A stretch of 64,000 bases of DNA from Clostridia bacterium (GTDB taxonomy: Bacteria; Bacillota; Clostridia; Oscillospirales; CAG-382): NCBI GenBank assembly GCA_017560085.1, contig JAFYPA010000083.1, positions 14,517 to 78,516 on the forward strand, in the 5' to 3' direction. The first letter of the stretch is position 1, and each line of letters begins with the position of its first letter. The position numbers and the translations under genes are program-made. The notes under the pieces are model-generated. The model was not told the origin of the DNA. It did not search any database and saw only the letters and a list, made by a program, of their open reading frames with translations. Below are positions 32,572 to 62,563 of this stretch, piece after piece.

Positions 32572-33705
32572 ATGACAGTCGTAGGACTTATATTTTCAAA
32601 CGTATATGACAGAAACATCTCCGAAATGACACGCAAGAGAACAATGGCAAGCGTACCCTTCGGATGCAGATACAGACTTATTGACTTTGCTCTTTCCAAT
32701 ATGGTAAACTCGGGAATAGACAAGGTTGGTATCGTAACACACTATAACTATCAGTCCCTTCTCGACCACATCGGAAACGGTAAGGACTGGGACCTTGCAA
32801 GACGCTCGGGCGGTATCAAGATTCTTCCTCCCTTCATTACGGCGTATGACAGCAATGTTGCAAACAAGCTCTATTCCACAAGACTTGAGGCAATGATTGG
32901 TATAAACAACTTTATAAACCGCTGCACGGAGGACTATGTTGTTCTTTCCGACTGCGATATTATCTGCAACATCAACCTTTCAAAGGTTATAAAGCAGCAC
33001 GAGGAAAGCGGTGCGGATCTTACCGTAGTAACAAAGAAGATGTTCCTCACGGACGACGATGCGGGCAAGCACACCATTATCGAATCGGATGATGAGGGCT
33101 ATGCATCCAATGTATATGTAAGCACATCCAACACAATCGGAATCAATCCCATCTCCACAAACATCTACGTTATCAAGAGAACAACCCTTCAGGGACTTCT
33201 TCTTGAGGCGCTTGCACACGGCTACAAGTCCTTCACGCTTGATGTTCTTACGGTTCTTGCAAAGAAGAGACTGGTTAAGTGCTACGAATTTGACGGCTAC
33301 TATGCATACGTTCATTCCCTTGCGGGCTATTTCTCCACGAGTATGCAGCTTCTTGACCCCAATGTCCGTGCAGGTCTTTTCGGCATAAAGCACAGACCCG
33401 TTATGACAAAGGTGCGTAACTCCGCTCCCACAAAGTACACGGACGGCGCTGTGGTTAACAACTCCCTTATCGCCGACGGCTGTGTAATTGAGGGTGAGGT
33501 AATCGACTCAATCCTCTTCAGAGGCGTAAAGGTTGGCAAGGGTACTGTTATCAAGAACTGTATTCTTCTTCAGGACACATACATCGGTGAAAACTGCAAT
33601 CTCAACTGTGTAATTACGGATAAGAATGTAGTTATCAAGGACGGAAGAAATCTTTCGGGACACGAGTCGATGCCGTTCTTTATTGAGAAAGGGGCAAGAG
33701 TTTAA
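32572..33705 (+). CDS. glgD: glucose-1-phosphate adenylyltransferase, GlgD regulatory subunit
   Basis: Paralog of glgC lacking the GGxGxRL loop (FSNVYDRNISEMTRKRTMASVPFGCRYRLIDFALSNMVNSG). Position immediately after glgC. Confidence 0.9.
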   Translation: MTVVGLIFSNVYDRNISEMTRKRTMASVPFGCRYRLIDFALSNMVNSGIDKVGIVTHYNYQSLLDHIGNGKDWDLARRSGGIKILPPFITAYDSNVANKLYSTRLEAMIGINNFINRCTEDYVVLSDCDIICNINLSKVIKQHEESGADLTVVTKKMFLTDDDAGKHTIIESDDEGYASNVYVSTSNTIGINPISTNIYVIKRTTLQGLLLEALAHGYKSFTLDVLTVLAKKRLVKCYEFDGYYAYVHSLAGYFSTSMQLLDPNVRAGLFGIKHRPVMTKVRNSAPTKYTDGAVVNNSLIADGCVIEGEVIDSILFRGVKVGKGTVIKNCILLQDTYIGENCNLNCVITDKNVVIKDGRNLSGHESMPFFIEKGARV

Positions 33706-33741
33706 AAAAGAATGCATAATGCATAATGCATAATGCATAAT
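33654..33741 (+). repeat. direct repeat DR1 (glgD 3' end, stop codon, A-run and (AATGCAT)4AAT array)
   Basis: 55 nt (33654-33708) are identical to 34038-34092. The array 33711-33741 is identical to the left arm of cassette B. Confidence 0.9.
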
Positions 33742-33819
33742 TAAGACCGCTTGCGGTCGGAGGATTGCTTCTCGATCTTCGTTTGATTGAATTTTAATCA
33801 GAGGAAAGGACGTGATTGG

Positions 33820-34089
33820 ATGAAAAATCTTAAGCTGTTTTTCTCGGCGCTTACGGTTGCGTTTGGGATTCTGGGCTTGACTAAGGCTCTTTCGACAGAT
33901 GTTTCGATGCCGATAATGTTTGTGTGTCTGGCAACGACTATGTTTATTACGTCCAAAGAATACAAGGATAACAATCAAAAAAGGACGGCGGTTTATTTTC
34001 TGCTGTTGGGGGTGTTCCTTGTGGCGGTAACCGTATATTCGGGACACGAGTCGATGCCGTTCTTTATTGAGAAAGGGGCAAGAGTTTAA
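33820..34089 (+). CDS. small 3-TM membrane protein (DUF3953-like) whose last 16 codons are a copy of the glgD 3' end
   Basis: 89 aa with a GAGGAAAGGA RBS. The C-terminus SGHESMPFFIEKGARV is identical to the GlgD C-terminus because of DR2. Confidence 0.5.
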   Translation: MKNLKLFFSALTVAFGILGLTKALSTDVSMPIMFVCLATTMFITSKEYKDNNQKRTAVYFLLLGVFLVAVTVYSGHESMPFFIEKGARV

Positions 34090-34110
34090 AAAGAATGCAT
34101 AATGCATAAT
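34038..34110 (+). repeat. direct repeat DR2 (second copy of the glgD 3' end plus (AATGCAT)2AAT)
   Basis: Identical to DR1 over 55 nt, 384 bp downstream. One A fewer in the A-run and two fewer heptamers. The following CTTCGTTTAATTAAA resembles 33776-33792. Confidence 0.9.
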
Positions 34111-34163
34111 CTTCGTTTAATTAAAACTCCTTGTTTTTGGAGATTAAAAAAGGAGGATATACA

Positions 34164-59553: not shown

Positions 59554-60236
59554 TTATCGATTTGCACGTTCACACGCAGGAGGTAAGCGGCTGCTCAAAC
59601 GTCAGCGTGGAGGATATGATTGACAAATACCACGCAAAGGGCTATGATGCGGTTGTGATTACCAATCATTTCTGCAGATATACAAGAGATTTCGGCAAGT
59701 TTGAGAAATGGGACGACTTCGTTGATTTCTTTATGGTACCGGTAAATCGGGGCAGGGAATACGCAAAGAAGTACGGAATGAAGATATTCTGGGGCATAGA
59801 GCTCCGCTTCAACTGTGACTACGCCAACGACTTCCTTGTTTACGGAATCACCGAGGAATTTCTGAAGGAGCATCCGAATATGCTTGATATGAGCATCGCG
59901 GAATTCTCTCCCCTTGCCCGTGAGGCGGGATGCCTTATCTATCAGGCGCACCCGTTCCGTGACTGGATTCAGGTTATACCGCCGAAATTCCTTGACGGAG
60001 TTGAGGTCAATAACGGACATCCCTATCAGAACTCAAGAAACGACTTTGCAAGGCTCTGGGCGGATGCCAACGGGCTCGGTATGATTTCAGGCTCGGACTT
60101 CCATCAGGACGGCTACGAGGCGCACGGCGGAATCGTGACATTCAAGGATATAGAAAGCAACGAACAGCTTTGCGATATTCTCCGAAGCGGTGAATATAAT
60201 CTCATCTGCGATAAGACAGGCGGACTTTCAAGATAA
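59550..60236 (+). CDS. PHP-domain phosphoesterase
   Basis: MIIDLHVHT... VITNHF ... QAHPFR ... SGSDFH PHP motifs. ATGA overlap with the upstream gene. Confidence 0.75.
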   Translation: MIIDLHVHTQEVSGCSNVSVEDMIDKYHAKGYDAVVITNHFCRYTRDFGKFEKWDDFVDFFMVPVNRGREYAKKYGMKIFWGIELRFNCDYANDFLVYGITEEFLKEHPNMLDMSIAEFSPLAREAGCLIYQAHPFRDWIQVIPPKFLDGVEVNNGHPYQNSRNDFARLWADANGLGMISGSDFHQDGYEAHGGIVTFKDIESNEQLCDILRSGEYNLICDKTGGLSR

Positions 60237-60322
60237 CAAGGTCGTATTCTGTCGTATTAGCAGACACGGCGGTTGTTTGCAAATTTTGAATGTTAAAAAA
60301 ATGTAAACAACTGTAAAAACAC

Positions 60323-60351
60323 TTGATTTTTCAATATTATTGTACTACAAT
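60323..60351 (+). promoter_or_regulatory. groESL promoter
   Basis: TTGATT (60323-60328), 17-nt spacer, TACAAT (60346-60351); immediately upstream of CIRCE. Confidence 0.6.
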
Positions 60352-60364
60352 ACTCAATGTAGTT

Positions 60365-60391
60365 TTAGCACTCGCGCTTAAAGAGTGCTAA
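60365..60391 (+). promoter_or_regulatory. CIRCE operator (HrcA binding site)
   Basis: TTAGCACTC-gcgcttaaa-GAGTGCTAA is a perfect match to the CIRCE consensus TTAGCACTC-N9-GAGTGCTAA. Confidence 0.95.
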
Positions 60392-60409
60392 AGACAGAGT
60401 AAAAAATAA

Positions 60410-60727
<318 letters not shown>

Positions 60728-60746
60728 GAATCAAAACTGCGTTTTG

Positions 60747-60854
60747 AAAATGCACAATGCAAAATGCAAAATGCAAAATTGATGTGAAAATTTCTTCGAA
60801 ATTTTTATTTTATTGAAATCGCCTGCGGGCGAGGGGAATCGGGGGGTTCCCGAT
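60747..60854. repeat. partial intergenic cassette (copy F) inside the groES-groEL spacer
   Basis: Array AAATGCACAATGCAAAATGCAAAATGCAAAAT (60747-60779). Hairpins 60787-60805 (AAAATTTC-TTC-GAAATTTT), 60819-60832 (TCGCC-tgcg-GGCGA) and 60838-60854 (ATCGGG-gggtt-CCCGAT). Confidence 0.65.
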
Positions 60855-60865
60855 ATATTCCCTAA

Positions 60866-62509
<1,644 letters not shown>

Positions 62510-62530
62510 TAAAATCACAATAAACCATAA

Positions 62531-62563
62531 GAGTCACACCTTTGCGGGTGTGGCTCTTTTTTT
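62531..62563 (+). terminator. intrinsic terminator after groEL
   Basis: GAGTCACACC-tttgcg-GGTGTGGCTC (10 bp, one G-U pair), followed by TTTTTTT. Confidence 0.8.

Follow-up and report, generated by a model that had tools for sequence, protein, structure and literature searches.

A decayed one-armed heptamer-array repeat in the groES-groEL spacer of a Clostridia genome, most likely passenger DNA

The stretch analyzed here (the window) comprises 64,000 nt of a Clostridia bacterium contig and carries a groESL operon in which groES and groEL are separated by 159 nt. Our reading, to which we give a probability of about 0.7, is that ~114 nt of this spacer (60749 to 60862) are a decayed, one-armed copy of a repeat dispersed through the genome of this gut bacterium, most likely passenger DNA and not a dedicated chaperonin switch. 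The element would have entered the groES-groEL gap once, in a common ancestor that this species shares with two sister species. This lineage would then have lost the distal part and the right arm, so that the left module remains along with two accessory GC hairpins; other strains of the species would have exchanged the insert for a different, complete cassette. The copy lies in the sense orientation, 21 nt past the groES stop codon, and, judging from the operon architecture, is probably cotranscribed with groESL. As selfish or structural DNA, it would be tolerated in the gap between stop and start codons, a permissive site, with a strongly folded intercistronic RNA as a probable side effect.

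The spacer spans 60728 to 60886 according to the gene coordinates, which confirms the 159 nt of an earlier, sequence-only annotation of this DNA (the original prediction). Its parts are as follows.

60728-60748, plus strand: left flank, 21 nt, with the small hairpin CAAAAC-TGC-GTTTTG at 60732-60746
60749-60779, plus strand: heptamer array (AATGCAC, three times AATGCAA, then AAT), 31 nt, 4.4 units
60780-60786, plus strand: linker TGATGTG, 7 nt (family consensus YGAGGTT or TGATGTT)
60787-60805, plus strand: hairpin 1, AAAATTTC-TTC-GAAATTTT, an exact palindrome whose triloop is closed by C-G
60806-60819, plus strand: T/A-rich tail TATTTTATTGAAAT
60820-60831, plus strand: hairpin 2, CGCC-TGCG-GGCG, a rare accessory module
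60833-60862, plus strand: hairpin 3, GGGGAATCGGG-GGGTT-CCCGAT(ATA)TTCCC, an accessory GC hairpin
60858-60866, plus strand: TTCCCTAAT, 9 nt, a weak match to right-arm repeats that is consistent in position only

To place this copy within a family, we characterized its array and the arrays found elsewhere in the genome. The predicted heptamers are all present, and the array does start 19 nt past the groES stop codon in the phase used in the prediction, which becomes 21 nt when the unit is written as AATGCAN. Tandem Repeats Finder reported it at 60747-60779 with a period of 7, 4.7 copies, and 92% matches. With up to 2 mismatches allowed, the 14-mer AATGCAAAATGCAA has 18 matches in the window, compared to 1.16 expected, and no shuffled sequence reached 18. 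Genome-wide, the 3.1-Mb assembly contains ~247 arrays with a period of 7, most of them 31 nt long, and the words from which they are built include AATGCAT, AATGCAC, AATGCAA, AATAGTG/AAGAGTG, GGACAGT, AATTCGG, and AGGAACT. Across these different words the copy number is constant at ~4.4 units (~31 nt). The AATGCAT and AATAGTG arrays contain stop codons in all three frames.

The arrays recur as part of a larger module, in which the array is followed by a 7-nt linker (CGAGGTT or TGATGTT), a hairpin of 6 to 9 bp, and a T/A-rich tail. Among 180 detected first hairpins, 81 start 7 nt past the array and 92 have a TTC loop. The stems vary in sequence from copy to copy while their pairing is kept, and one and the same module is attached to different words; the consensus of 118 copies reads ...AAT-nGAGGTT-GATTGC-TTC-GCAATC-TTCA.... 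From 118 distinct modules of this genome, with the groES-groEL copy excluded, we built a covariance model of 58 positions (R1). This model matched the spacer at 60766-60825 on the plus strand, over model positions 1 to 58 of 58, with 44.3 bits and an E value of 3.4e-9. A member of the family is marked by an array of at least three heptamers (typically 31 nt), a 7-nt linker with a C-G-closed TTC hairpin of 6 to 9 bp and a T/A tail, and a significant score under a model lacking the copy in question, and the spacer copy has all of these features. Thus, the TTC-triloop hairpin and T-rich tail that the original prediction likened to hairpin 1 of two cassettes of the window, A and B, do belong to one family with them.

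Cassettes A and B each consist of two modules placed face to face, and the basic unit is one-armed. Solo modules are common in the genome. Within the window, R1 matched cassette A on both arms; in cassette B, it matched the whole left arm and part of the right one. In the spacer, we found no minus-strand R1 match at E values up to 1, and no inverted (minus-strand) array was found near the copy. The description of a one-armed or decayed copy with no visible right arm therefore stands. The short sequence TTCCCTAAT may be a remnant of the right arm, since the genomes referred to below as G001 and G002 keep an arm of CCCTAAATCC repeats at this place.

Formal alignment, on which the prediction had staked any relationship to other copies, also linked the spacer to three specific loci. 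Hairpin 1, the tail, and hairpin 2 together match contigs C31, C56, and C57 at 87-89% over 46 nt; hairpins 1 and 2 occur together nowhere else in the genome, and at C31 the matching stretch lies directly 3' of a GGACAGT array. The other AATGCAA arrays of the genome were considered as the closest donor and rejected, as the sequence downstream of them is unrelated. An Rfam scan of the whole 64-kb window did not reveal any known RNA family. No obvious target-site duplication flanks the spacer copy or the alternative cassette described below, although no systematic search for miniature inverted-repeat transposable elements was made.

The two GC-rich hairpins of the original prediction are both present, but the end given there for the insert, 60854, cuts hairpin 3, which reaches 60862. 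No second copy of hairpin 3 was found in the genome. As RNA, hairpin 1 is predicted to fold at -4.4 kcal/mol, its stem being all A-U except for the closing C-G pair, while hairpin 3 folds at -14.7 kcal/mol and hairpin 2, together with flanking bases (60819-60834), at -9.0 kcal/mol. The spacer as a whole folds at -48.1 kcal/mol, compared to -32.7 kcal/mol for shuffled versions (z = -4.07). A G-quadruplex was rejected for hairpin 3, as its G runs are too few. The left flank (60728-60748) is probably native spacer, because it has CGTTTTGA in common with the short spacer of the congener G006; a hairpin like the one in the flank follows an array at C65:63385, and the flank hairpin may itself derive from the repeat family. 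Separately, we noted that the start of hairpin 3, GGGGAATCGGGGGG (60834-60847), includes one GGGAATC, a heptamer that is repeated in Xanthomonas (PMC4692102); this match is probably a coincidence.

We next compared groES-groEL spacers across related genomes, a comparison that the original prediction had proposed. The spacers of this genome (G000) and its congeners are as follows.

G005, 36 nt: ribosome-binding site only, no repeat
G004, 40 nt: ribosome-binding site only, no repeat
G003, 43 nt: ribosome-binding site only, no repeat
G006, 50 nt: ribosome-binding site only, no repeat
G000 (this genome), 159 nt
G002, 311 nt
G001, 356 nt

The median spacer was 26 nt in 29 relatives and 27 nt in 79 further Clostridia species; 8 of the latter have spacers of at least 100 nt, several of them with other hairpin-rich sequence. 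The repeat insert is missing from four of the six congeners and from all more distant relatives compared, and long spacers among the congeners are confined to the three repeat-rich genomes. Scoring 136 candidates per genome, which yields lower bounds, we counted at least 135 modules in G000, 67 in G001, 48 in G002, 6 in G004, and 27 in G014, and none in G003, G005, and G006. The comparison supports an insertion, and a universal 159-nt spacer, the opposite outcome, was not seen.

These results also bear on the idea of an ancestral, conserved 159-nt spacer, or else of an artefact of assembly. Five independent metagenome assemblies carry the same spacer at 158-159 nt, unchanged or with few small changes, and the spacer is genuine sequence and no assembly artefact. 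Its presence in several assemblies is silent on ancestry, but a median of 26-27 nt over 108 related genomes, the scored membership of the module in a family of at least 135 copies, and the polymorphism of the spacer within the species all speak against an ancestral spacer, and we regard this explanation as almost certainly wrong.

The longer spacers of the two sister species share parts with the spacer studied here. In G001, the AATGCAA array is the same, hairpin 1 is homologous, and hairpin 2 is identical; ~130 nt more follow, and then a right arm of CCCTAAATCC-type repeats. The G002 spacer has hairpin 2 and the same type of right arm as G001. The hairpin-2 motif is rare, with 4 copies in G000, 2 in G001, and 3 in G002, one of which in each genome lies in the groES-groEL spacer, and it was found in none of the other congeners or G014. 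As the same rare module occupies one gap in three species, an outcome hardly to be expected of separate insertions, we infer from these sequences a single old insertion in their common ancestor, before the species split. The case for shared ancestry relies on the hairpin-2 motif, because a tree of groES and partial groEL leaves G000, G001, and G002 unresolved; the tree is compatible with a single-insertion history.

More distant genomes offer parallels at the same site. Four uncultured gut Clostridia (L078, 215 nt; L095, 167 nt; L063, 182 nt; L060, 145 nt) have spacers made of unrelated perfect hairpins, suggesting that the groES-groEL gap has been colonized repeatedly by different repeat families. 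Candidatus Enterenecus faecium (L093; DVFO01000011.1, ~900-1200) carries a ~170-nt GC-rich, hairpin-filled insert between groES and groEL, after which the last 57 nt of groES, including the stop codon, recur with few synonymous changes. This recurring tail resembles the duplicated glgD tail at 33654-34126 of the window, where the 3' end of the upstream gene and an AATGCAT array are duplicated 384 bp downstream, around a small membrane-protein open reading frame (ORF).

The spacer also varies within the species. Ten metagenome contigs encode an identical GroES; five have the spacer described here, and five have an alternative version in which a different left flank is followed by a GGACAGT-word cassette. 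Among the five same-spacer contigs, the hairpin-3 loop and the T run that follows the ribosome-binding site vary in length; further variants affect one array unit and one base each of the first small hairpin and of the foot of the hairpin-3 stem (the latter in L038). One contig with the alternative version (L037) has a full two-armed GGACAGT cassette in a 234-nt spacer that reads through into groEL, and the right-hand junction of this cassette is known from L037 alone. The two-armed version folds into a stem of ~29 bp, which the one-armed version cannot form. Relative to this genome, groES has 0-2 differences in 288 positions in the contigs that carry the alternative version, whereas L032, which has this genome's version, differs at 6 groES positions and 45 of 1009 groEL positions. 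The near-identity of groES in the former and the divergence of L032 indicate that both versions segregate in one species-level population.

The position of the copy is typical of its family. Between co-directional genes, solo modules are in the sense orientation in 53 cases and antisense in 17 (p = 2e-5), a count that is independent of gene starts. Of the 53 sense modules, 44 are no more than 60 nt away from the upstream stop codon, a pattern that the groESL copy fits. Divergent promoter regions contain few family copies. Short gaps between co-directional genes hold about 28 other solo modules, and the groESL copy therefore does not stand out. Replication strand was considered as a cause of the sense bias and rejected, since modules follow genes that are co-oriented with replication (19 versus 3) as well as those that are anti-oriented (7 versus 1); this result is suggestive, being drawn from a usable subset and from a leading strand assigned by GC skew in a fragmented assembly, a weak guide under which 61% of genes are co-oriented.

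The passenger reading has to be weighed against possible functions in the operon, the remaining features of which are listed here.

60323-60351, plus strand: promoter-like site of groESL, TTGATT-17-TACAAT, a consensus scan match only
60365-60391, plus strand: controlling inverted repeat of chaperone expression (CIRCE), TTAGCACTC-N9-GAGTGCTAA, read in the sequence upstream of groES
60440-60727, plus strand: groES, 95 aa, Cpn10 (PF00166 on an identical protein)
60873-60877, plus strand: groEL Shine-Dalgarno GGAGG, kept in every spacer version
60887-62509, plus strand: groEL, 540 aa, Cpn60
62529-62558, plus strand: canonical intrinsic terminator of the groESL operon, with a 13-bp stem that has 6 G-C pairs, then T7

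CIRCE is the operator of HrcA. The groESL operon is essential and strongly expressed, and the ratio of its two products is important. The CIRCE is present as a single copy at the groESL locus, 5' of groES, and the spacer has none. One possibility is that the array acts as an internal promoter that transcribes groEL separately. A match of the form TTGAAA-17-CAAAAT does lie at 60744-60772, scoring 9 of 12, but its -10 hexamer is weak, four such matches occur in the region where 1.9 are expected from shuffles, the spacer is without a CIRCE, and the match is missing from the alternative cassette and from the short spacers of relatives. We consider an internal promoter very improbable.

It had also been proposed that hairpin 1 and its T-tract act as a weak terminator that could modulate the GroES:GroEL ratio. 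With an A-U stem of -4.4 kcal/mol, hairpin 1 fails the terminator scan, and a consensus scan of the plus strand from 60200 to 61000 did not find any terminator. Hairpins 2 and 3 are stable but lack a U tract, so that nothing in the spacer qualifies as an intrinsic terminator, and the real terminator lies 3' of groEL. Because groEL lacks a CIRCE of its own and is preceded by no more than a weak promoter-like match, its transcription must pass through the insert, from which we infer that a strong terminator is excluded. A weak terminator in the spacer is likewise not supported by these sequence features.

A broader form of this proposal is that the insert has been co-opted for intercistronic control, as a partial terminator, an RNase site, or an mRNA stabilizer that sets the GroES:GroEL ratio. 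There are precedents, as the malE mRNA is stabilized by repetitive extragenic palindromic (REP) hairpins within malEFG and the groESL mRNA of Agrobacterium is cleaved between the genes. The sense orientation directly past the groES stop codon and the strong fold of the spacer are in keeping with such a role, as is the position of the stable hairpins 2 and 3, which stop 10 nt short of the groEL Shine-Dalgarno (itself predicted to be unpaired with a probability of 0.35-0.59). By analogy with REP elements, these two hairpins could shield the 3' end of groES or the 5' end of groEL against exonucleases. Dedicated control is harder to reconcile with the replacement of the whole insert by an unrelated cassette in conspecific strains, with the four congeners and nearly all other Clostridia that do with 10-60 nt, with the failure of hairpin 1 as a terminator, and with the ~28 other solo copies in similar gaps, which leave nothing specific to groESL.

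Several observations nevertheless weigh against a pure passenger. Compared to L032, the spacer differs at 4 of 159 positions, while the third codon positions of groES and groEL differ at 49 of 432 (Fisher's p = 5e-4), so that the spacer is the better conserved of the two; hairpin 2 is identical in three species, and most changes in hairpin 3 affect the loop. The low spacer divergence and the invariant hairpin 2 also count in favor of intercistronic control, although gene conversion among copies or a recent recombination tract could be the source of both. Some insert has been kept at the site in all three repeat-rich species, and the sense-orientation bias of the family could reflect a function at the RNA level. 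As to the history, the groES/groEL tree does not settle whether the three insert-bearing species form a clade, and some short contigs with the alternative cassette end without groEL after the insert and may be misjoined at repeats. Taken together, we regard co-opted control as doubtful and prefer the reading of a tolerated passenger.

We also looked for genes that might move the family. An ORF resembling a REP-associated tyrosine transposase (RAYT) lies just past a ruvA-like gene at C21:6490-7023 and scores 76.9 bits on NF047646, below the cutoff of 80; among nine relatives checked, it is present only in this genome. RAYT was rejected as the mobilizer, since the ORF is missing from G001, G002, and G014, which carry at least 67, 48, and 27 modules. 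An IS200-type TnpA was rejected as well, as it is present in G000, G001, and G002 but also in repeat-free genomes and is missing from G014. Copies of the IS200-type transposase break the assembly at contig ends (C39:71480-71835, C44:1-200, and C97:1-520), and on C39 a heptamer module lies ~200 nt upstream of the transposase gene.

A different set of genes is associated with the repeats. The genome has 7 genes for four-helix-bundle proteins of PF05635. One of them lies within a complete two-armed cassette between co-directional genes (C6:7090-7620; locus L127, 1399-1893), with AGGAACT-word arrays and GAAAGC-TTC-GCTTTC hairpins on both sides of the gene, and its product scores 138.8 bits on PF05635 and 129 bits on TIGR02436. 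Inward-facing R1 matches flank the gene on C6 and also at the corresponding locus of G002 (L128, G002:C57). The other six genes are found at the following positions.

C109:1-720
C78:1-720
C26:90250-91150
C35:13450-14200
C118:4800-5500
C29:14400-15139

The words at these six genes are AGTGAAT, AATGCAC/AATTCAC, AGTGAAA, GTGAAAT, CATCAT-type, and ATGAATT. Three of the six lie directly 3' of an array-linker-hairpin module with its own word, and the remaining three are flanked by other repeats of a word plus a mini-hairpin. At C29, a ~105-nt repeat stands on both sides of the gene with one base different. At C26:90880-91050, a tRNA-like gene lies between inverted heptamer arrays (CTCTTCACT... / ...CACTTTTCACT), directly 5' of the four-helix-bundle gene. 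Overall, an array is present within 200 nt upstream of 4 of the 7 PF05635 genes, compared to 4.9% of all genes (p = 2e-4). On this evidence, the gene-less cassettes look like derivatives of gene-carrying ones that resemble the ORF-bearing intervening sequences (IVS) of rRNA. Since PF05635 genes also occur in relatives without the module, the link between family and gene is an association.

This association raises the idea that the heptamer array is a DNA or RNA site for a trans-acting protein, which the spacer copy would recruit to the groESL locus, with a pentameric S23p/Avd-like four-helix-bundle protein as the best candidate. The fixed array size across words would suit a protein site, as would the gene held inside a canonical two-armed cassette in two genomes, the enrichment of arrays upstream of these genes, and the presence of a word of its own around each array-linked PF05635 gene; S23p itself forms a toroidal homopentamer, as summarized in PMC4990558 (citing Lin et al. 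2006). Conversely, G003, G005, and G017 have PF05635 genes without any module copies, and no four-helix-bundle gene with AATGCAA arms was found. We think such protein recruitment to groESL quite unlikely; the idea concerns the family as a whole and is compatible with a passenger copy in this spacer.

Regardless of which role the arrays play, the groESL gap can evidently be invaded, remodeled, and swapped between strains by a small repeat while the operon is kept. The value of the finding is a natural allelic series at an essential operon together with the link of the family to four-helix-bundle genes. One-armed and two-armed versions at one site within the species, and short repeat-free spacers in four congeners, are natural variants that could show whether repeats alter mRNA processing or protein ratios.

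Among known systems, the REP elements and bacterial interspersed mosaic elements of enterobacteria and pseudomonads (including REP doublets forming hairpins, or REPINs) are similar in being short, noncoding hairpin repeats in hundreds of copies, clustered after stop codons and in operon gaps, present singly or as inverted pairs, and rare in divergent promoter regions. REP elements can stabilize mRNA. Unlike in REP elements, each arm here combines a tandem heptamer array, the word of which varies, with a mini-hairpin that has a triloop; the GTAG or CGTC head that marks REP elements is absent from the alignment of 118 copies, and the only RAYT-like ORF does not track the repeats across genomes. 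The BOX, RUP, and SPRITE elements of Streptococcus pneumoniae are modular mosaics of variable order, noncoding and cotranscribed with their neighbors, and the family resembles them, as generally described, in being a noncoding, cotranscribed mosaic of submodules in variable order. To our knowledge, these elements have no sequence similarity to the module and no heptamer arrays.

Heptanucleotide repeats are overrepresented in some bacteria without an explanation (PMC4679880, PMC4692102). They include the long simple sequence repeats (LSSR) of Mrazek et al. 2007, as summarized in PMC4679880, and the short tandemly repeated repetitive (STRR) sequences of Calothrix and TAACTGA repeats in Beggiatoaceae (PMC4679880). 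Further examples are GGGAATC and GGGGAYT in Xanthomonas and Nostoc, with one such repeat located in the pecE-pecF gap of Nostoc (PMC4692102). Like the arrays described here, all of these are short intergenic arrays with 2 to 6 copies of a 7-nt unit, abundant in a lineage and variable between close relatives, sometimes in inverted pairs and sometimes inside operons. They have been treated as slippage-prone simple repeats, whereas here the copy number is fixed at ~4.4 and the array is joined to a conserved linker-hairpin module that is common to several words. In the literature, of which our coverage is incomplete, we did not find such arrays described in combination with a conserved linker-hairpin module or with genes for four-helix-bundle proteins.

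The closest parallel to the gene-carrying cassettes is provided by the ORF-bearing IVS of 23S rRNA, which in Coxiella, Leptospira, and Xanthomonas encode the four-helix-bundle protein S23p and whose termini pair in a 28-bp stem cleaved by RNase III (PMC4990558). The full-length relatives in this genome and G002 similarly hold a PF05635/TIGR02436 gene between inward-facing arms, and two-armed copies can pair their arms into a stem of ~29 bp, compared to 28 bp in the IVS. In contrast to IVS, the cassettes lie between protein-coding genes and not in an rRNA helix, and their arms are heptamer arrays. The spacer copy itself shares none of the marks of an IVS (a site in an rRNA helix, a long terminal stem, and an S23p ORF), as it has no ORF and no second arm. 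By analogy, the arrays might be recognition words of cassette-encoded pentamers, the family a counterpart of IVS that colonizes stop-to-start operon gaps in the sense orientation, and the two-armed ~29-bp stem a substrate for RNase III, which we offer as a long shot; if it were true, the empty, one-armed, and two-armed states of the gap would lead to different mRNA processing and GroES:GroEL ratios. The tie to four-helix-bundle genes provides a concrete candidate partner for bacterial heptamer repeats.

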